A stretch of 19,010 nt of DNA, from NCBI GenBank assembly GCA_051117555.1, contig JBNPEG010000043.1, positions 1-19,010 of the forward strand. The letters run 5' to 3'. Below, piece after piece: positions 3,167 through 19,010 of this stretch. Origin of the DNA: Elainellaceae cyanobacterium. GTDB taxonomy: Bacteria; Cyanobacteriota; Cyanobacteriia; CAZCXK01. The first letter of the stretch is position 1, and every line of letters begins with the position of its first letter. The position numbers and the translations under genes were made by a program. The notes under the pieces were generated by a model. That model was not told the DNA's origin, made no database searches, and saw only the letters and a list, made by a program, of their open reading frames with translations.

Positions 3167-5056
3167 TTAGCGATAGGCAATTGTGCAGTCAGCCGACTGA
3201 GCCGTAGCGTGTGGAGGAACCAACCCCACCACATGGGGCACCGGGCGCGGCACATAGCGCACCATCGACTCTCCCTGATAGGCCAACGAGGTGCTTGCTC
3301 CCGAATCGAGCATGACCGCATCTTGCAGCCCCAACTGAGCGAGCATCGTCCCTAGTGACACCGAATCAACCCGATCATTGGAAACGCCAATCACAGGTTG
3401 CCCTGCTTGATTAACGCCCCAAAAGGCTCGATGACGATAGGCATCAAAGTCAAACAACCCGCCAAACGATTCGGGAGCGCGGGGTTGCCCGTCTTTGACC
3501 AGCCATGCAGCACCAACAAACGCATCTGTGACATCTGCCATCTCTGCCTGAATGCCTGCCAGAGAGTTGTGCGTATTGGCATCAAACGGGACAAATTTCA
3601 CCGCATCTGAGCTAATCAGCACTAAGGGGCGATTGATCAACCTCGGATTCTCGCTCGCATTGCCTGGAACAAACTCCCCCGTACTTTGGCTGAGCACCGG
3701 CCCAATCATCGTATTGGAGTCGAGATACTTCATCGAGAAAAAGCCACCATCAACTGCCGCCATAACATCGGTGTTAGCAATAATCTCAGGGACTTGATAG
3801 CGACTGTCTGCATGGATTGTGACGGGTTTGCCACCTGAAATTAGAGTAAGAGGAACATCATCCATCACAGGCTGATCGAGCCGAATCGGAGCCGTAAAGT
3901 CAAATGCGCTGGCCCACAGCCGAGGCTGAGAACCTCCCCATGCCCGTGAGGCCACGATTTCTAACTGGGACTGACCAATGCGATCGATCGCCAGTAGATT
4001 TTGTGAGTCTCCTGCAAAGCGATTCTCGCGATCATCCATTGTCAGCGCTGCCCGATAGCCCGCTTCGCGAACTGCCCAAGCGACCCGTGCGTCATACTTC
4101 CCCTCAGGATAGGTGAAATAGTGAATCGGGCGGCCCAACTCGGCTTCTAGCACGCGACGAGATTCCACAATTTCATGCTCAAGCTCTGCGTCGGACACCT
4201 CTCGCAAATCTGCCGGATGCGTGACGCTATGAGCTGCGATCGTGACGAGCGGATCGGCTGCCATCTCGCGCAGTTGTGCCCAATTAACGCCGGGTCTGCC
4301 GTAGTCTCGCCCAACCTTATAGGTATAGATCGAAAATGATCCGGGATAGCCGTATTTCTGGAGGAGGGGAAAGACGTGAGTATAGTGCCCTAGATAGCCA
4401 TCATCGAAGGTAAGCAGAATGGGCTTTTCGGGGAGGGGAAGCCCGGTGCGCAGATGGTCAACCATCTGATCAAGGCTGATGGGAGTTAGCCCATTTTCTT
4501 GAATATATTGCAGGTCTTCTTCAAATTCTTCGGGAGTAACATCGAAGAAGACTTCTTTTTCGGCCAAGATGTCGTGATACATGATCACCGGAACTTGAGC
4601 AAGCCGCGCCCGTCCGTGGATGGTCGGCCAGGGGCTGGGGGCTAGGGAGGCTACGATCTGCGGTCCCAATGCTTGAATAAATCTATCTAAGCCCGATTCG
4701 GGCGTTTGCAGCCAGGTTGCGACTTGAACAGCCTGATCGGCGATCGCCCCAATTTCTGGCTCGGCACTGCCCTGATTTACTGGACAGGCTGACGTCAGCG
4801 AATCGGGAGAAGGCGAATCGGGAGAAACTATATCAGCGTCAAGGGAAACTGGATCGTCCATACCCGGAATCAATGGCTCATCTACCGGGATTTCGTCTGT
4901 TGGGATTTCATCTGCCGGGATTTCGTCTGCCGGAAGGGCGATGTCAGACTCAGACGGAAGTTGGCTAACAGATGAGGAGGCAATAGAGGCGATCGCAGAC
5001 GCAATCAGAGCTGTTAAGCTCAGGCGAAAAAGGCGCGTTTGCACAGGGGGCACCAT
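3167..5056 (-). CDS. Polysaccharide deacetylase (NodB/CE4) fused to phosphodiester glycosidase (NAGPA-like) domain, exported
   Basis: VPVIMYHD, LTFDDGY, AHSVTH and FTYPEG (CE4 motifs). C-terminal AVDGGFF...RAFWG...AVMLDSGASTSL (phosphodiester glycosidase). N-terminal signal-like segment. Confidence 0.88.
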   Translation of the reverse strand: MVPPVQTRLFRLSLTALIASAIASIASSSVSQLPSESDIALPADEIPADEIPTDEIPVDEPLIPGMDDPVSLDADIVSPDSPSPDSLTSACPVNQGSAEPEIGAIADQAVQVATWLQTPESGLDRFIQALGPQIVASLAPSPWPTIHGRARLAQVPVIMYHDILAEKEVFFDVTPEEFEEDLQYIQENGLTPISLDQMVDHLRTGLPLPEKPILLTFDDGYLGHYTHVFPLLQKYGYPGSFSIYTYKVGRDYGRPGVNWAQLREMAADPLVTIAAHSVTHPADLREVSDAELEHEIVESRRVLEAELGRPIHYFTYPEGKYDARVAWAVREAGYRAALTMDDRENRFAGDSQNLLAIDRIGQSQLEIVASRAWGGSQPRLWASAFDFTAPIRLDQPVMDDVPLTLISGGKPVTIHADSRYQVPEIIANTDVMAAVDGGFFSMKYLDSNTMIGPVLSQSTGEFVPGNASENPRLINRPLVLISSDAVKFVPFDANTHNSLAGIQAEMADVTDAFVGAAWLVKDGQPRAPESFGGLFDFDAYRHRAFWGVNQAGQPVIGVSNDRVDSVSLGTMLAQLGLQDAVMLDSGASTSLAYQGESMVRYVPRPVPHVVGLVPPHATAQSADCTIAYR

Positions 5057-5229
5057 ATTGACGCAAATTCACAGTGGGATTACAGCTTAGTTCTACACGA
5101 TTTTAGGACTGTCTTCAGGTTTTCTGCACAACATTGCCGGAGAACATTGGGCAGAACATCACAAGCAATCTAGAATCGATATCGCATAATTGATTTTTTA
5201 TAACCAGATCTTTACGATTCGTTAAAAAC

Positions 5230-5244
5230 ATAAATGATAGTTAT
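5230..5244. promoter_or_regulatory. Putative LysR-type (RbcR/CmpR/CcmR class) binding site upstream of rbcL
   Basis: ATAA-ATGATAG-TTAT dyad containing T-N11-A, in the AT-rich divergent intergenic region before rbcL. A second T-N11-A dyad TTAA-AGAAC-TTAA lies at 5363-5375. Confidence 0.45.
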
Positions 5245-5531
5245 CTTTAAGCAAAGAAGTTTGAAAGTTCGACTTATTAAATTATTCCGAATACCTGATA
5301 TAGTTTCATTGAAACCAATAGTGCAGGGTCGGGTCAAATAGCCAGGTCGAACAGACATTCAGTTAAAGAACTTAAGTGAATGCTGACCTACTTTTTACCC
5401 TGATTTGTATCAGCTTCAATAGCCAGCGTAAGTTGCCCTTTGAGACATGTTTGACCTGTTTCGTTGGATTTTTTCTAAGCGGGCAGGGTTCTATTGGTTC
5501 GGTTTTGAGTGATTCATTAGGAAGGGGAAAT

Positions 5532-6962
5532 ATGTCTTATTCTCAAACACGAACTCAGTCAAAGTCTGGGTACGAAGCTGGGGTAAAGGATTATAAATTA
5601 ACCTATTACACCCCAGATTACACGCCCAAAGATACTGATATTTTGGCTGCATTCCGTGTCACGCCTCAGCCTGGGGTGCCCCCTGAAGAGGCTGGTGCAG
5701 CCGTTGCAGCCGAGTCGTCTACAGGAACTTGGACCACCGTGTGGACAGACCTGCTGACTGACCTCGATCGCTACAAAGGTCGGTGTTACGATATCGAGCC
5801 AGTGCGGGGCGAAGAAAGTCAGTTTATTGCTTATATTGCGTATCCGCTCGATTTGTTTGAAGAAGGATCTGTTACGAACCTGCTGACCTCCATCGTGGGG
5901 AACGTGTTTGGATTTAAGGCGTTGAAAGCGCTTCGTCTAGAGGACTTGCGAATCCCAGTTGCCTATCTAAAGACCTTCCAAGGGCCTCCTCACGGAATCC
6001 AAGTCGAGCGCGACAAGATCAACAAGTATGGTCGTCCGTTACTCGGCTGTACGATTAAGCCCAAGCTGGGTCTGTCTGCGAAGAACTACGGTCGCGCAGT
6101 ATATGAGTGCTTGCGCGGTGGTCTTGACTTCACTAAAGATGACGAAAACATCAACTCTCAGCCGTTTCAGCGGTGGCGCGATCGCTTCTTGTTTGTAGCC
6201 GATGCCATTCACAAGGCACAGGCTGAAACGGGTGAGATCAAAGGTCACTATCTCAACGTCACCTCTGCCACCTGCGAAGAAATGCTAAAGCGGGCGCAGT
6301 TCGCAAAAGAACTGGGAATGCCCATCATCATGCATGACTTCCTCACGGGTGGCTTCACCGCTAATACGACCTTGGCGAAGTGGTGCCGCGACAATGGCTT
6401 GTTGCTTCACATTCACCGAGCCATGCACGCCGTCATCGACCGTCAGAAAAATCATGGTATGCACTTCCGGACCCTAGCGAAGTGTTTGCGGATGTCAGGT
6501 GGTGACCACATCCATACCGGAACGGTTGTCGGTAAGCTAGAGGGCGATCGCGCGGTAACGATGGGCTTTGTCGATCTGTTGCGTGAAAATTACATCGAGA
6601 AAGATCCCTCTCGCGGTATCTACTTTACTCAAGACTGGGCATCCATGCCGGGTGTGATGGCAGTCGCATCGGGTGGTATCCACGTTTGGCACATGCCTGC
6701 CCTCGTCGAAATCTTTGGCGACGACTCCGTCCTTCAGTTTGGTGGTGGCACGCTAGGTCACCCGTGGGGTAATGCGCCAGGTGCAACCGCTAACCGGGTT
6801 GCTCTAGAAGCGTGCGTTCAGGCTCGTAACGAAGGTCGCAACTTGGCTCGTGAAGGCAACGATGTCATCCGCGAAGCAGCGAAGTGGTCACCTGAGTTGG
6901 CAGCGGCCTGCGAACTGTGGAAGGAAATCAAGTTCGAATTCGAGTCGGTCGATACCGTCTGA
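5532..6962 (+). CDS. rbcL: Rubisco large subunit, Form IB
   Basis: [30 protein letters not shown] start, [10 protein letters not shown] carbamylation motif, KLEG loop 6, [13 protein letters not shown]. True start is ATG 5532 after GGAAGGGG (476 aa). Confidence 0.99.
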
Positions 6963-6965
6963 TCG

Positions 6966-7039
6966 AAGTTTTGAATATAAAGTTTTGAGTTTTGGGGCGA
7001 ATCGCTAACTCAAAACTCAAAACTTGAACCTCAAAACTT
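6966..7039 (+). repeat. Inverted heptamer (GAGTTTT/AAAACTC) stem-loop between rbcL and rbcX
   Basis: AAGTTTTGA (6966-6974) pairs with TCAAAACTT (7031-7039). AAGTTTTGAGTTTTG (6980-6994) pairs with CAAAACTCAAAACTT (7011-7025). Confidence 0.8.
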
Positions 7040-7059
7040 TCTAAAGGTCGGTATCCCTC

Positions 7060-7500
7060 ATGGATCTTAAGCAAATCGCCAAAGATACGACCAAGACTCT
7101 GATTAGTTATCTAACTTATCAGGCAGTTCGAACGGTTGTGAGTCAGTTGCGCGAGACAAATCCACCTTTATCGTTCTGGCTGAATCAATTCTCTTCGGCT
7201 AGCAAGATTCAAGATGGTGAAGCATATCTGCACGATTTACTGCAAGTGAATCAGCAGCTTGCGTTCCGGATTATGACCGTTCGGGCTCATCTTGCAGAGG
7301 AGGTCGCCGACTTCTTGCCTGAGATGGTGAAATCAGGAGTCCAAGAAGCCAACATCGACCATCGTCGTCGATATCTAGAGCGAATCACGCAGTTAAATTT
7401 GTCTGAAGCGGTTCCTCGCTCAGATTCGATGTCTGAGCAAACAAATTTAACGTCGGATTTACCAGAGTCGGAATCTGATTCGGAGAATCGCTCCGATTGA
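7060..7500 (+). CDS. rbcX: Rubisco assembly chaperone RbcX
   Basis: MDLKQIAKDTTKTLISYLTYQAVRTVVSQLRETNPP...QDGEAY...RIMTVRAHLA; located between rbcL and rbcS. Confidence 0.98.
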   Translation: MDLKQIAKDTTKTLISYLTYQAVRTVVSQLRETNPPLSFWLNQFSSASKIQDGEAYLHDLLQVNQQLAFRIMTVRAHLAEEVADFLPEMVKSGVQEANIDHRRRYLERITQLNLSEAVPRSDSMSEQTNLTSDLPESESDSENRSD

Positions 7501-7604
7501 TGGTGATGGAGGCTAGTTTACTTCGTCTGAATCGAAGGCTAGCATTCGTCGTGTCGTTATATCAATTCCTTGCACAAACAGTACGCTAGAAGGATCAACA
7601 AACT

Positions 7605-7946
7605 ATGAAAACTCTTCCAAAAGAGAGACGGTACGAAACACTGTCCTATCTGCCCCCGCTGACGGATCAGCAGGTTGCGAAGCAGATTCAGTACATTCTC
7701 GAGATGGGATATATTCCTGCGATCGAGTTTAATGAAACCTCTGAACCCACGGTCTACTATTGGACGATGTGGAAGCTGCCTTTGTTCAATGCGACGTCCG
7801 TTCAAGATGTGTTGAACGAAGTTAGCGAATGCCGCAACGAATACCGCGATTGCTTCATTCGTGTGGTTGGATTTGACAACATCAAGCAGTGTCAAGTCTT
7901 GAGTTTCATCGTGCATAAGCCCGGTGCGAGCACGTTTCGGTACTAG
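7605..7946 (+). CDS. rbcS: Rubisco small subunit
   Basis: [19 protein letters not shown]...[10 protein letters not shown]...[22 protein letters not shown]. Confidence 0.99.
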
Positions 7947-7973
7947 GCGGTCTGGCAACACAGATTTCCCTTA

Positions 7974-14855: not shown

Positions 14856-15107
14856 GTGAGTCAGATTCAAATTGAAATTCCTGAAGAAGTTCTGATTAGT
14901 TTGAAAGAAACGCCTGCCACGCTTTCGCGTGAATTGCCGTTGCTTGCGGCTATTAAACTGTTTAAACTCGGTAAACTGTCTTCTGGTCGAGCTGCTCAAC
15001 TGGCAGGAATATCGCGGGTTGAATTCTTGACTCTCTTGGGTCGTTATCAGGTTTCTCCTTTCCCATTCACTGCTGAAGAATTAGAACAGGATGTCCAAAA
15101 CGCCTGA
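14856..15107 (+). CDS. UPF0175 family antitoxin
   Basis: LAAIKLFKLGKLSSGRAAQLAGISRVEFLTLL HTH signature. GTG start after GAGGT. Confidence 0.88.
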   Translation: MSQIQIEIPEEVLISLKETPATLSRELPLLAAIKLFKLGKLSSGRAAQLAGISRVEFLTLLGRYQVSPFPFTAEELEQDVQNA

Positions 15108-15237
15108 AATTCAGGTCATCGTGAATACGTCTCCTCTGCTCTATCTGCATCAGATTGGGCTTCTAGATTTGGTGAGTAGTTCTTTTGCTAGATACAGACT
15201 CTGCGATCGCCCCTTCAAATATCACGTCTTTGCATAA
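15091..15237 (+). pseudogene. Truncated DUF3368/PIN toxin
   Basis: Overlaps the antitoxin stop. Translates MSKTPEIQVIVNTSPLLYLHQIGLLDL (typical DUF3368 N-terminus), then unrelated sequence and a TAA after 48 codons. Confidence 0.78.
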
Positions 15238-16035: not shown

Positions 16036-16224
16036 ATAATCACTTCGAGTGCTTTAATAATCACTTCGAGTGCTTTAATAATCACTTCGAGTGATTAATT
16101 TAGCTCTTTGAGTGTCTTGATCATCACTCAGAGTGTCTTGATCATCACTCAGAGTGTCTTGATAATCACTCAGAGTGTCTTGATAATCACTCAGAGTGTC
16201 TTGATAATCACTCAAAGCATCAAA
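16036..16224 (+). repeat. 21-bp tandem repeat array, 9 units
   Basis: ATAATCACTTCGAGTGCTTTA type x3, one degenerate unit, AT(C/A)ATCACTCAGAGTGTCTTG x4, one degenerate unit; all in 21-bp phase. Confidence 0.95.
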
Positions 16225-16376
16225 AGATTCAGAATCCCTGAGTTCTAATCTAGCTGTTTGGGAAAAGAGGCAATTAGGCAAACCACTACGCTGCGCGATC
16301 GCCACCCAATCATCACATTAGTGGCCACACACATGCGATCGCTTGATTGCCATGCTTTCGGTAAATCAGGAAATCG

Positions 16377-16616
16377 CTATCTGGGGTAAACATTCGTGGA
16401 TAAGTCACCTAAGCCACTATCCAGGCATCCAACTAAATCTCCAGCCAGTTCCAAAGCAGAGGGAGTGGTGTGATTGGCAGAAGGTCTGATTTCTTCTTGC
16501 AAGGATACAGCAGACTCTTCCTCATTGGCCAATTCGGTGGTGAGGAACTGCATGACCTTGAGCTTATCGGCACGGGATAATTGCTTGAGGGGAGCAAATA
16601 AGTCTGTAGCAGTCAT
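16377..16616 (-). CDS. Orphan antitoxin-like small protein, possibly C-terminally truncated
   Basis: LSRADKLKVMQFL..EL N-terminus and SALELAGDLVGCLDSGLGDLSTN C-terminus, both reminiscent of antitoxins that precede PIN toxins. No toxin ORF follows. Confidence 0.6.
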   Translation of the reverse strand: MTATDLFAPLKQLSRADKLKVMQFLTTELANEEESAVSLQEEIRPSANHTTPSALELAGDLVGCLDSGLGDLSTNVYPR

Positions 16617-16792
16617 GGCGATGTGATTAGTGGGGGGCAATCTATTGTGTCATGGTCTATCCTGGCAAGAAGGTTTCGCTTATCAAGGGCGATCGCATTG
16701 GGGCAAAGCGTTATTATTGGCAAAGTGAGCATAACTCCATAGCACCCAGGTTAAACATTTATTATCATCTATCTCAAATAGAAACTTGGACT

Positions 16793-17833
16793 ATGAATAT
16801 TGATCTTGGCAGATTGAGAATAGAGCGTGTTATTGCACATGACATACCTCTTCAAACACCAGGAGAGGGAGAACAGAATTTACTTTTTAGTGAAGTTGAA
16901 AGCCCTTTGGACCAGGAAAATAAAAACTTTTTTAAAGAGAGAATAAATAGAAGTCTTGCATCCGCAGCTTTTGACGTTATTGCTGATCCGGCAACAACCT
17001 CGCCAGTACCTAAATACATTCATCAACTCATTTCTGGTGATGGCCAGAAGTTCGTCGAAATATCACAGAATATATCTCAACACCTTTACAATTGCCAAAA
17101 CCGTGCAAATTCAGAGGGCATAGTAGTTTTAATACAGGCGGCCATCCAACAGTCACATAGCTTGGTAATTCTTAAGCTAGAAAAAGAGCAAGGAATTCGC
17201 GTACACCAAGAAAATATAAACGGAAAAAGAACTTTTGCAATTGAACAGTTTACCGATTTAATGATGACAGATGGGACAAAGGTATTTAAAGTTGGCTTGT
17301 TTTATAATTTTGGGCAAACATCAGAAACTATTCAAGGCCGTGTATCAGACAAACAAAGAAAATATGATGTCGGAATTTCCGATTTCTTCTTAAGAAAGTT
17401 CTTGGGTTTTAAGTTTAAGGAAGCACCAAGCATAACGACTAAAAACTTCTTTCACTCAACAGAAGAATTCATTAATCAAAATTTATCTGATTCGCAAACA
17501 AAGGCAAATTATACAGTTGCCCTAATAGCCACCCTAGGAAATCAGGAAAACACAATTGACCCCTGGAGATTTGCTGAACAAAACATGCAAGTAGCCGACA
17601 GAGCTAGATATGTCAATTTTGTTCAAGAGCATGGAATTCCTACTGAAAAATTTATAAAAGATACAAGCCAGATTAAGAATCATATTAGGAAAGTGCAAAT
17701 GGAATTTAAAAGTGGTATCCTTATACTTGGCAAACCAGACGTTTTTAACGAGCAAGTTCAAATTACTAGAATGGGTGAGGAAAGAGTTAGAGTCTCGCTC
17801 GAGGATGAAATTAAACGAACCTCTGGGAAGTAG
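16793..17833 (+). CDS. Nucleoid-associated protein, NA37/YejK (NdpA) family
   Basis: IERVIAH start, F...S..I...LY..Q, ILKLE, KVFKVGLF, D.Q...SDFF...FLG and T..FF.....FI pattern; 346 aa. Likely ATG is 16793. Confidence 0.78.
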   Translation: MNIDLGRLRIERVIAHDIPLQTPGEGEQNLLFSEVESPLDQENKNFFKERINRSLASAAFDVIADPATTSPVPKYIHQLISGDGQKFVEISQNISQHLYNCQNRANSEGIVVLIQAAIQQSHSLVILKLEKEQGIRVHQENINGKRTFAIEQFTDLMMTDGTKVFKVGLFYNFGQTSETIQGRVSDKQRKYDVGISDFFLRKFLGFKFKEAPSITTKNFFHSTEEFINQNLSDSQTKANYTVALIATLGNQENTIDPWRFAEQNMQVADRARYVNFVQEHGIPTEKFIKDTSQIKNHIRKVQMEFKSGILILGKPDVFNEQVQITRMGEERVRVSLEDEIKRTSGK

Positions 17834-17874
17834 TTTCTTTGCGTCTTGGCTCAACCAAGAATCTCAGTTTATCG

Positions 17875-18873
17875 ATGATCAATTTAGATCCTGATGCTCT
17901 AAGAGAAGCTTATGAGAAACAAAGGCCTTTGTATAAGGAATTTGCTTCTTATGTATGTGATGTTCTTGACCGAGAGATTCGTCAAAGAAATATAAGAGTT
18001 CTCAGTGTTAAACATAGGGCAAAAGAGGTAGAAAGTTTCGTAAGAAAGGCACTTCGACAACAATATTTCTCTCCTATCAATGAAATAACAGATAAGGCTG
18101 GTGTTCGAGTAACAACCGTATATCTGAATAGTTTAAAGCACATTTCTAATCTAGTCTCTGAAAAGTTTTTAGTGCACAAACATGAAGATAAAAGATTAAG
18201 CCTAAACCCTCACGAGTTGGGATACCTTGGAATACATTTTGAAGTGAGCTTAAAGACTGACGAATTTCAGTGTGATGTTGCACATGAAAAATATAAGGAT
18301 TTGATCTGCGAAATCCAACTACACACTCAAGCACAAAATCTCTGGGCTGGTGTGTCTCATGAGTTGTTGTACAAGCCTGTAGATCAAGAACTCTCTATTC
18401 AAACAAAGAGAGATATATTCCGACTCATTGCCCTTGTCGAAATTTTTGATAACGAGATTGAAAATGCAAGAGAAGAAATGTCTAAAGCAATGTCTGATGA
18501 GAGCTATCCACAAGAAATCAAGATCCTGAGGAAGCTGGAGGAGTATTTTCGCAGGTTTACTGATAAGCCTTTTGACAAGGAACTCTCTGCTAAAATTATT
18601 AATAGGCTTATGATGACATTTGAATCTCAAAAAACATCTGAAATTGATTCGACGCTAGATGAGTTCATTGAATCGAAAAAAGATAAGATAAAAGAAATTT
18701 TTGATGACTATTCGGATGATGAAAGACGTAATCCTCTGCTATTTCAACCGGAAAGTTTGCTAATATTTGAACGATTAGAACATAATAGCTTTTTGTTGAA
18801 GGAGATTTGGAATCAGTTCTTCCCACTTCGTTTACTAGAGTCCTTTGGAGCCATTTGGGGCGTTCGCGTTTAG
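17875..18873 (+). CDS. RelA/SpoT synthetase-domain protein (small alarmone synthetase-like) with C-terminal extension
   Basis: HRAKEVESFVRK, ITDKAGVRV, GYLGIH and CEIQLHT...WAGVSHELLYK map onto the synthetase motifs RxKxxxSxxxK, DxxGxR, GYxxxH and ExQxRT...WA...H...YK. No HD hydrolase domain. Start is ATG 17875 or TTG 17839. Confidence 0.88.
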   Translation: MINLDPDALREAYEKQRPLYKEFASYVCDVLDREIRQRNIRVLSVKHRAKEVESFVRKALRQQYFSPINEITDKAGVRVTTVYLNSLKHISNLVSEKFLVHKHEDKRLSLNPHELGYLGIHFEVSLKTDEFQCDVAHEKYKDLICEIQLHTQAQNLWAGVSHELLYKPVDQELSIQTKRDIFRLIALVEIFDNEIENAREEMSKAMSDESYPQEIKILRKLEEYFRRFTDKPFDKELSAKIINRLMMTFESQKTSEIDSTLDEFIESKKDKIKEIFDDYSDDERRNPLLFQPESLLIFERLEHNSFLLKEIWNQFFPLRLLESFGAIWGVRV

Positions 18874-18885
18874 ATAATCTGTCTC

Positions 18886-19010
18886 GGGAGCATGTCAGGT
18901 TTGCAGAATTGAGCGAAAGCGTTGAGGATAGAGCTATCGTGACACTGGGTAGCAACATGACTCCGGAGCAAAAGGCCCAACTGCAACCGCATCTCGATGC
19001 TATCGCCAAA
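18886..19010 (+). mobile_element. Left end of ISKra4-family (IS256-related) insertion sequence, transposase ORF starting at 18957
   Basis: GGGAGCATGTCAG terminus followed by MTPEQKAQLQPHLDAIAK, resembling the N-terminus of cyanobacterial ISKra4-type transposases. Only 125 bp are visible. Confidence 0.62.

Follow-up and report, generated by a model that had tools for sequence, protein, structure and literature searches.

Our analysis of the window (the whole 19,010 bp stretch of Elainellaceae cyanobacterium DNA described above, which is an entire contig, C236) indicates that two adjacent genes near its right end probably constitute a horizontally acquired, two-gene abortive-infection module that resembles type I PANGU. 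The module encodes a YejK-like protein of the NA37 family and a small RelA/SpoT-type synthetase (SAS); in the latter, a helical linker joins an intact catalytic domain to a C-terminal domain that is helical and acidic (table 1). Type I PANGU, as described in a 2026 preprint (bioRxiv 10.64898/2026.04.06.716658), is made up of a YejK-like nucleoid-associated protein (NAP), Pag1A, and a gRel toxSAS, Pag1B; Pag1A is reported there to leave phage-degraded DNA and bind the C-terminal domain of Pag1B, whereupon pppGpp is synthesized and the infection is aborted. The original prediction for this DNA took the pairing of such genes to be uncharacterised, and allowed that it might match an already named system; Pag1A and Pag1B are such a system as far as the preprint describes them, and from sequence comparisons our pair looks like a distant PANGU-like member and not like something new in kind.

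Table 1. Positions in the window of the gene pair, its protein domains and the surrounding features
Feature	Position	Strand	Remarks
NA37/YejK-like nucleoid-associated protein gene	16793..17833	+	346 aa plus stop; presumed Pag1A-like sensor/activator
Small RelA/SpoT-type synthetase (SAS) gene	17875..18873	+	332 aa from ATG; presumed Pag1B-like effector
Catalytic synthetase domain, SAS residues 1-165	17875..18369	+	conserved residues in 34 homologues
Long alpha-helical linker, SAS residues 175-206	18397..18492	+	DSSP on AF2 model
Acidic all-helical C-terminal domain, SAS residues 213-328	18511..18858	+	seven helices in model; presumed NA37-binding 'DMK'-like domain
Cassette block common to same-genus genome	16335..18885	.	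blastn vs L001
87-aa ORF within shared block	16377..16640	-	in L001 alone among 17 loci
Contig-end repeat	18886..19010	.	begins exactly where cassette homology ends

The gene pair and its products

Both open reading frames are intact and have the same orientation, as had been predicted. The ATG start of the NA37 gene agrees with 31 homologues. The SAS gene has two possible starts, the ATG in table 1, which P0003, the database protein, has in common with its homologues, and a TTG at position 17839 (ORF 17839-18873), so that the gap between the genes is 41 bp or 5 bp, respectively, and both spacings had been foreseen. A promoter/terminator scan found 9 promoter-like sites where 6.5 +/- 2.5 are expected, and was uninformative. 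Pfam searches placed the two products in the expected families, PF04245 (NA37; E 2.8e-15, 57 bits, cut-off 24.6) and PF04607 (RelA_SpoT; E 1.7e-15, 57.7 bits, cut-off 27), respectively. NCBIfam gave nothing meaningful for the NA37 protein, and for the SAS only a sub-threshold match to GTPPhKinYjbM (43.8 bits against a cut-off of 320).

The AF2 model of the NA37 protein (pLDDT 82.3) has a single significant match in the PDB, E. coli YejK (9be2; Foldseek E 5.1e-9 over 337 columns), with which it shares Pfam family and fold. E. coli YejK is encoded by a standalone chromosomal gene, whereas the window's gene, with no other NA37 gene anywhere in the 6.06-Mb assembly, lies within a mobile cassette (below).

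In the SAS, residues R48, K50, S54, K58, D73, G76, R78, Y117, G119, H121, E146, Q148, T151, H162, Y166 and K167 show complete or at least 85% conservation among 34 homologues and align with the corresponding RelQ/RelP motifs; D73 lies within a TDKAG motif and Y117 is the G-loop tyrosine. Judged by these residues the active site, including the G-loop tyrosine, is intact; the preprint reports that Y129A in Pag1B, the equivalent of Y117, abolishes defence. The structures closest to the AF2 model of the SAS (pLDDT 90.4, pTM 0.80) are RelP (6ewz; Z 18.3, rmsd 2.5, 186 residues aligned) and RelQ (5dec; Z 17.2), and weaker matches were obtained with CapRel (7ztb; Z 13.0, rmsd 4.0, catalytic part, model residues 2-194) and FaRel (Z 7.9). 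In a wide structure search the matched rows spanned residues 2-191, so these matches barely sample the C-terminal domain. The modelled catalytic fold is thus closest to that of the (p)ppGpp-making RelP/RelQ and less near that of the tRNA-modifying CapRel or FaRel; the product itself may be pppGpp, (pp)pApp or a modified tRNA. RelQ and RelP, housekeeping small alarmone synthetases whose structures and sequences are the nearest to the SAS catalytic domain, differ from the SAS in their length of about 200 residues and in having neither the C-terminal helical domain nor an NA37 partner.

Conserved pairing in related loci

We found 17 related loci in all, in Cyanobacteriota, Chloroflexota, Actinomycetota and Methylomirabilota. 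One is cut by a contig end and is excluded from the pairing count; at the other 16, in four phyla, an NA37 sequence is always immediately upstream of the SAS gene on the same strand (13 intact, two frameshifted, one a C-terminal remnant), with -4 to +42 bp between the genes, so the conserved pairing that the original prediction called for is present. The two proteins have diverged together (r 0.95 over 78 pairwise identities, a value as high as which was reached in 0 of 5,000 Mantel permutations). The family is large, with 1,940 representatives (clustered at 50% identity) at E <= 1e-30. A full-length SAS is present in only 2 of 401 genomes of the phylum. Eleven relatives elsewhere in the phylum have the catalytic domain alone in common with it; they carry another tail, and no NA37 gene is found within their 1.5-kb flanks. 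These comparisons fit a partner-specific SAS tail, a C-terminal domain that strictly co-occurs with NA37 and might well be a protein-protein interface.

Relationship to type I PANGU

We measured homology against a gammaproteobacterial gRel/NA37 operon, which stands in here for the Pag1A and Pag1B sequences; it is a Klebsiella plasmid operon, DUF4231-NA37-RelA/SpoT, whose gene order is that of the 'Cluster 1 with SLATT' layout described in the preprint. The NA37 family profile (A2) aligns by hhalign with the Klebsiella NA37 protein over 335 columns (probability 99.6, E 2.4e-24), and the full-length SAS profile aligns with Klebsiella gRel and its 28-member family over 308 columns (E 4.2e-31); the SAS N-terminal domain profile on its own matches the gRel family with E 2.9e-25. 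When only the C-terminal domains are compared, profile against profile, they align end to end over 109 columns with probability 92.1 and E 6.3e-7 (cross-domain comparisons, as controls, reached E 0.0065 and 0.27); against the single Klebsiella sequence the comparison is not significant (E 0.048, control 0.15). The NA37 protein and both SAS domains therefore appear to be homologous to the proteins of this operon, the homology of the C-terminal domain being moderate, and the identity of the SAS to gRel is about 20-22%.

The pair shares with type I PANGU, as far as the preprint describes it, an upstream NAP gene, a SAS of ~330 aa with a catalytic domain, helical linker and acidic helical C-terminal domain, the conserved G-loop tyrosine, defence neighbourhoods and a spread across phyla. 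It differs in that the main text of the preprint names neither cyanobacteria nor Chloroflexota, which are hosts of the present family, and in that the survey filters given there would exclude a 41-bp gap and a contig-edge position; the family includes other loci with 39-42-bp spacing or contig-edge positions that fall outside those filters. The acidity of the C-terminal domain also differs: SAS residues 200-332 have a pI of 4.89 and a net charge of -7, and all 34 family members have an acidic domain here (median pI 4.65, median net charge -9), whereas the sampled gRel C-terminal domains are less so (median pI 5.4, median net charge -2.5) and 3 of 28 are basic, so that net charge is of limited use as a marker.

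When compared by eye with the trimmed Dataset S5 rows of PMC7229694, the catalytic motifs of the SAS look nearer to 'actRel2' than to 'gRel', so the SAS may fall outside the gRel subfamily named in the preprint. It is conceivable, although we consider it unlikely, that an actRel2-like clade in Cyanobacteriota, Chloroflexota and Actinomycetota represents NAP-gated synthetases that were assembled on a branch of their own, with a far more acidic partner-binding domain and, in some lineages, a 4-TM third component as membrane effector or anchor; its product or trigger might then differ, for example in responding to cyanophage-induced chromosome degradation.

A probably foreign cassette and its genomic surroundings

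The pair was predicted to be AT-rich, and it is; its GC content is 0.366 compared to 0.488 for the genome, and only 0.064% (about 7) of 10,924 windows of 2,081 bp across the genome are equally low. Comparison by blastn of the window with the related locus (L001) of a same-genus genome gave a single match, from 16335-18885 to 4458-7023 (94.9% identity over 2,566 columns), and no other shared DNA in 13 kb. This 2.55-kb block is the sole DNA common to the two and lies in different contexts in the two genomes, so that it has the behaviour of a cassette. A look for direct or inverted repeats at its ends gave nothing convincing. The low GC, the differing contexts and the presence of full-length SAS in so few genomes of the phylum together suggest that the cassette is foreign and was acquired horizontally, which we hold to be probable as part of the joint reading of the pair as a PANGU-type-I-like abortive-infection module.

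The same evidence bears on the idea that the pair is not a defence system at all, but a physiological module, with an accessory nucleoid protein acting through an alarmone synthetase so that the cell answers DNA damage in general with a stress response or growth arrest. Its window neighbours are indeed the housekeeping genes rbcL, rbcX and glmS, PADLOC finds no known defence system near the pair in the window (weak PDC candidates alone), and 7 of the 17 related loci have no strong defence matches. The other 10, on the other hand, have PADLOC matches with E <= 1e-20 within their 6-kb flanks (a raw count without matched control), so that a good part of the family does have defence genes, known or candidate, as neighbours, a context that the original prediction had wanted examined; the systems include type I and IIG restriction-modification, Druantia plus a CBASS cyclase, Lamassu, MADS, Old/Gabija-like, Iet and Hma. 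The patchy distribution, the foreign composition and movement of the cassette as a unit also speak against such a role, and the genome already has its housekeeping alarmone control in a long RSH. We consider a non-defence module quite improbable.

PADLOC itself matches the SAS only weakly, to PDC-S33 (E 3e-11, 41 bits). A similarly weak match, mostly to the N-terminal domain, is seen at 16 of the 17 loci and gRel proteins match equally weakly, so PANGU is not modelled in PADLOC 2.0.0. We rejected the SAS as a PDC-S33 candidate, since the match is not full-length.

Proposed mechanism and its competitors

Beyond the encoded architecture, the steps of the mechanism that we favour for this PANGU-like module are modelled on the one preprint on homologous systems. 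The YejK-like protein would reside on chromosomal DNA, the SAS being inactive meanwhile; degradation of the host chromosome by a phage would free an NA37 dimer, which would bind the acidic C-terminal domain of the SAS in a 2:1 complex. Once bound, the SAS would move pyrophosphate from ATP onto a guanine nucleotide, yielding (p)ppGpp, and the drain of ATP and GTP would stop transcription and translation and so abort the infection. The NA37 protein would be sensor and activator, not antitoxin. The original prediction had offered both roles; a DNA-state sensor that gates the synthetase in abortive infection matches the results given in the preprint for Pag1A and Pag1B, and the antitoxin option does not, so its functional idea seems to have been largely right and its claim of novelty not.

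A classical toxSAS toxin-antitoxin pair, with a constitutively toxic SAS and the upstream NA37 gene as antitoxin, is very improbable. At locus L006 the SAS is kept beside an NA37 remnant of only 67 residues, which a cell should not survive if the SAS were a true toxin, unless this particular SAS is inactive. Typical antitoxins, moreover, are far smaller than the 346-aa NA37 protein. The upstream gene and the tight spacing among the relatives do recall the toxSAS operons of PMC7229694 (FaRel, FaRel2, PhRel and PhRel2), where the SAS is likewise part of a conserved bicistronic layout, but the partner here belongs to a DNA-binding family and is not a small antitoxin or SAH; the main text and three supplements of PMC7229694 do not contain 'NA37', and the two 'nucleoid' passages listed from the supplements concern YbaB/EbfC. 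In the preprint, the type I PANGU homologues are reported to be non-toxic singly or jointly, with Pag1A activating and not neutralising its partner. CapRel SJ46, a fused toxSAS toxin-antitoxin and tRNA pyrophosphokinase, is comparable to the SAS in that a single chain carries both a RelA/SpoT catalytic fold and a regulatory C-terminal domain, and it acts by phage-triggered abortive infection, as the window's module would. It is structurally less near than RelP and RelQ (above), however, and it senses phage proteins directly without a partner gene, while in the present family the partner gene is conserved.

The roles of the two proteins could also be reversed, with the SAS as sensor and signal maker and the NA37 protein as an effector that, for example, compacts or occludes DNA. 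In CBASS, Pycsar and Thoeris a sensing enzyme makes a signalling nucleotide to which a separate effector responds, and the extra domain of the SAS could in principle serve as a sensor in this way. Pfam, however, detected no nucleotide-binding domain in the NA37 protein, and the strict co-occurrence of the C-terminal domain with NA37 fits a protein-protein interface. In type I PANGU, moreover, direct nanomolar binding of the Pag1B C-terminal domain by Pag1A, and gating of it by release from DNA, are reported in the preprint, and we regard a second-messenger system as highly improbable.

An optional third gene

Five of the 17 loci have a small membrane protein gene adjoining the pair, and in four cyanobacterial loci other than the window a conserved 4-TM gene directly follows the SAS gene. 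That the window's cassette is a decaying remnant, short of this gene and non-functional, is hard to credit even though the 4-TM gene was not found in the assembly and cassette homology ends at 18885, since both genes are intact with dN/dS of 0.26 (NA37) and 0.32 (SAS) relative to the sister copy, 12 of the 17 loci have no third gene, and two genes are reported in the preprint to suffice for type I PANGU.

Type II PANGU, in which the preprint combines a NAP (Pag2A) with a transmembrane effector (Pag2B), resembles the present family in its YejK-like sensor and in the membrane protein at those five loci; it differs in that the effector here would be the SAS, the membrane protein being an optional third gene that is absent from the window. 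The membrane protein has no detectable similarity to DUF4231/SLATT. We tried the 4-TM protein as a SLATT relative and found no support for it (hhalign E 0.13, no match in Pfam or PADLOC, unnamed atlas clusters). The optional membrane gene is a lead toward a three-component variant.

If the PANGU-like reading is correct, the pair would extend phage sensing by nucleoid-protein release to cyanobacteria, Chloroflexota and a large divergent family. Many cyanophages degrade host DNA, so such a module is plausible as a cyanobacterial defence. It would add no new principle, as this mode of sensing has just been described in the PANGU preprint.

Other features of the window

The window has 24 HIP1 sites, where 0.47 are expected from shuffled sequences, and the last of them is at 16689-16696. 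The original prediction was correct that none lies beyond 16696, but this is at most mildly unusual, because 339 of 11,061 genome windows (3.1%) of the same length (2,314 bp) are likewise free of HIP1. The statement that the pair lies beside an IS found no confirmation: no transposase was seen, and the last 125 bp (18886-19010) are identical to positions 2-126, one end, of contig C84 on the opposite strand, where a different gene flanks them; this demonstrates no more than a repeat shared by the ends of two contigs.

The 87-aa ORF of the shared block belongs to no Pfam family and has one weak PADLOC match (PDC-M52A, E 4.7e-5); its conservation does not reach beyond the genus and its dN/dS is 0.71 (on 18 substitutions), so it is probably not part of the system. 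The toxin-antitoxin debris that had been noted near the pair is borne out in part: a 48-aa ORF at 15091-15237 has a weak PADLOC match to PDC-S70 as its sole match, and the ORF that it overlaps, at 14856-15107, is of the UPF0175 antitoxin type (E 1.2e-27).

A mobile pair of NA37 and RelA/SpoT-type genes

The window is one entire contig of a cyanobacterial assembly (6.06 Mb, 256 contigs), and its right end carries two co-oriented ORFs. [quoted passage not shown] The 5–41 bp separation in the original prediction is correct, since SAS has two possible starts: the gap is 41 bp with the ATG and 5 bp with a TTG at 17839, from which the frame is also open. Purifying selection acts on both genes, as judged against the sister copy in a genome of the same genus (locus L001): dN/dS is 0.26 for NA37 and 0.32 for SAS. 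Elsewhere in the genome there is a single further RelA/SpoT gene, whose 767-aa open frame fits a long RSH, and a second NA37 gene was not found in the assembly.

The pair is as AT-rich as was claimed, with a GC fraction of 0.366 versus 0.488 genome-wide; an equally low value occurs in about 7 (0.064%) of the 10,924 same-length windows of the genome. HIP1 sites (24 in the window, 0.47 expected from shuffles) do stop at 16696 as noted, but this is a weak sign of foreignness because 3.1% of genome windows are HIP1-free over such a length. The window and L001 have a single block in common (94.9% identity), the rest of 13 kb being different, so the pair moves as one cassette of some 2.55 kb. Of 401 genomes sampled from the phylum, two have full-length SAS, and these belong to the window's genus; after the sister copy (95% identity) the nearest relatives are Chloroflexota copies (48%), followed by other cyanobacterial copies (41–45%). 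The NA37/SAS feature is real, conserved and foreign.

No insertion sequence or transposase is seen in the window, although one had been thought to adjoin the pair. Its final 125 bp recur without mismatch at one end of a 61-kb contig of the same assembly, where they lie beside an unrelated predicted transporter ORF, and this repeat begins at the very position at which the sister-cassette homology breaks off. All that the identity establishes is a repeat present at two contig ends. The "toxin-antitoxin debris" receives some support from a UPF0175 ORF that, with an overlapping 48-aa ORF, resembles by sequence a toxin-antitoxin pair whose toxin is truncated. The 48-aa ORF weakly matches PADLOC candidate defence profile PDC-S70 (E 1.8e-5, first 24 of 161 positions). 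The window's own neighbour genes are housekeeping genes, with weak candidate PADLOC matches only; the foreign cassette and core genes of carbon fixation are 9 kb apart. A tandem array (21-bp unit, 5 copies, 98% match, nested in 42- and 63-bp periods) is situated just outside the common block.

Coordinates of features in the window and in related loci
Feature	Location	Strand	Remarks
rbcL, rbcX, 113-aa ORF	window 5376-7961		5376-6962, 7060-7500, 7605-7946
UPF0175 antitoxin-type ORF	window 14856-15107		E 1.2e-27; overlaps 48-aa ORF
UPF0175 locus	window 14856-15237		
Tandem array	window 16036-16214		
Block common with L001	window 16335-18885		
NA37 gene	window 16793-17833	+	346 aa; ATG start matches that of 31 homologues
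SAS gene	window 17875-18873	+	332 aa from ATG used by database protein and homologues; PF04607
125-bp repeat	window 18886-19010		
4-TM gene	L001:7022-7603	-	
4-TM gene	L007:6991-7563	-	
4-TM gene	L008:6970-7542	-	
4-TM gene	L017:6970-7533	-	
4-TM gene	L006:3100-3669	+	E 9e-48
NA37 remnant	L006:1873-2079		
SAS related in catalytic domain only	L023-L033		G004, G013, G031, G034, G040, G052, G073, G082, G097, G109, G139
Klebsiella pneumoniae operon (L037)	plasmid NZ_CP092398.1, 295627-304649		DUF4231-NA37-RelA/SpoT; conjugative IncFIB plasmid

Conservation of the pairing

The SAS alignment was scanned against one genome per species, giving 17 loci from Cyanobacteriota, Chloroflexota, Actinomycetota and Methylomirabilota (the family has 1,940 representatives at 50% identity and E <= 1e-30). 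Sixteen of them have an NA37 sequence immediately upstream in the same orientation, and the 17th starts within the SAS gene, so the predicted pairing is found wherever it can be assessed. Thirteen upstream copies are intact and two are split by frameshifts, both in MAG contigs whose names give low coverage. The remaining one, in actinobacterial locus L006, is reduced to the final 67 profile positions, followed by a SAS that looks intact and by a 4-TM gene (below), which points to decay or to a variant able to function in the absence of the NAP. Identities of NA37 and SAS co-vary across the 13 intact pairs (r 0.95, a value not reached in any of 5,000 Mantel permutations), a pattern that common cassette ancestry would also produce.

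Eleven more genomes of the phylum, from a class other than the window's, have relatives of the SAS catalytic domain only (E 1e-26 to 1e-42) in proteins of 349–425 aa (one broken copy 226 aa) with a different C-terminal part, and no NA37 gene was found in their 1.5-kb flanks. The presence of the SAS C-terminal domain therefore tracks that of the NA37 partner; judged by sequence, these relatives are another SAS family, partner-less or differently partnered.

Relationship to type I PANGU

The pairing was thought to be uncharacterised, but it is described in a preprint of April 2026 (bioRxiv 10.64898/2026.04.06.716658) on PANGU, bicistronic anti-phage operons built around a YejK-like NAP; our literature search found no other publication on it. 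In type I the NAP, Pag1A, is partnered with Pag1B, a "gRel" toxSAS with an N-terminal synthetase domain, a helical linker and an acidic, "DNA-mimicking" C-terminal domain. Pag1B is an inactive tetramer, a Pag1A dimer binds its C-terminal domain (KD 9.4 nM), and the trigger is release of Pag1A from DNA as T4 nucleases degrade the chromosome (same preprint). A YejK domain is also among the newly validated defence domains of the DefensePredictor paper (PMC13092281). "NA37" is absent from the main text and three supplements of Jimmy et al. 2020 (PMC7229694), and two "nucleoid" passages from its supplements are YbaB/EbfC entries.

As a stand-in for Pag1A/Pag1B we used the Klebsiella operon L037, whose layout is that of the preprint's "Cluster 1 with SLATT", the SLATT-bearing type I PANGU. 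Its genes overlap or are separated by short gaps, and a DEAD/DEAH helicase gene adjoins. Its SAS shows, by eye, the motifs of the gRel rows of Dataset S5 (PMC7229694), which include Ferrimonas futtsuensis, and belongs to a family of 959 proteins (E <= 1e-10), mostly from Gammaproteobacteria, E. coli included. The window SAS is only about 20–22% identical to it. Profile-profile comparison of the two families aligns full-length SAS (E 4.2e-31, 308 columns), its catalytic domain (E 2.9e-25, 162 columns), NA37 (E 2.4e-24, 335 columns) and, end to end, the C-terminal domain alone (E 6.3e-7, prob 92%, 109 columns), where cross-domain controls gave E 0.0065 (19 columns) and 0.27 (1 column); against the single Klebsiella sequence the C-terminal domain is not significant (E 0.048). 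In the trimmed Dataset S5 alignment the window SAS motifs look nearer the "actRel2" rows (Ferrimicrobium, Planobispora), and by this visual comparison its subfamily would be nearer actRel2 than gRel. Neither SAS family is modelled in PADLOC 2.0.0, which assigns no named system; both have only weak PDC-S33 matches.

The AlphaFold2 model of SAS (pLDDT 90.4, pTM 0.80) has an alpha/beta domain (1–165), a long helix (175–206) and a helical bundle (213–328). For the catalytic domain the best structural matches are RelP (Z 18.3, rmsd 2.5, 186 aligned) and RelQ (Z 17.2), a result borne out by Foldseek; CapRel (Z 13.0), Tas1 (11.6) and FaRel (7.9) are weaker matches. Nucleotide-binding and catalytic motifs are kept (R48/K50/S54/K58, D73 of TDKAG, Y117-G119-H121, E146-Q148-T151). 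The C-terminal domain is acidic in all 34 members (median pI 4.65, net charge -9), the catalytic domain near neutral. The NA37 model (pLDDT 82.3) has E. coli YejK (9be2) as its sole significant PDB match (E 5.1e-9, 337 columns).

The window pair thus appears, by comparison through the Klebsiella stand-in, to be a new, divergent member of the kind described in 2026 and not a new kind, and its best reading, which we consider fairly probable, is an abortive-infection module like type I PANGU. The original proposal of a "DNA-state sensor" gating the synthetase is essentially the preprint's model for the homologous pair; the alternative that NA37 is an antitoxin fares badly, as Pag1A and Pag1B are reported to be non-toxic singly or combined. 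The nucleotide product and trigger of the window pair are predictions from low-identity homology, and the reference mechanism comes from one preprint.

Neighbours of the related loci

Defence-gene neighbourhoods had been suggested as a check: 10 of the 17 loci have PADLOC matches at E <= 1e-20 within 6 kb (a raw figure without matched control), four have weak matches only and three none. The ten flanks carry PDC-S03 (L001), type II methyltransferases (L002, L016), MADS and Lamassu LmuB (L003), methyltransferase and Vsr (L010), type IIG restriction-modification (L011), Druantia DruA and DruE with a CBASS cyclase (L012), an Old/Gabija-like ATPase (L013), IetA, IetS and HmaC (L014), and type I restriction-modification (L017). 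For scale, the proportions near defence genes in the preprint's data are 8.2% (NAP operons) and 4.2% (standalone NAPs).

Directly after SAS, five of the 17 loci encode a conserved protein, about 190 aa long and predicted to have four TM segments; its gene is convergent with SAS in four cyanobacterial loci (mutual identity 49–53%) and co-directional in L006. No Pfam family, PADLOC family or DUF4231/SLATT similarity was found for it, and the gene was not found in the window's genome. The cassette homology between the window and L001 stops exactly at the stop codon of this 4-TM gene, whose product may be an optional third component of the NA37/SAS system.
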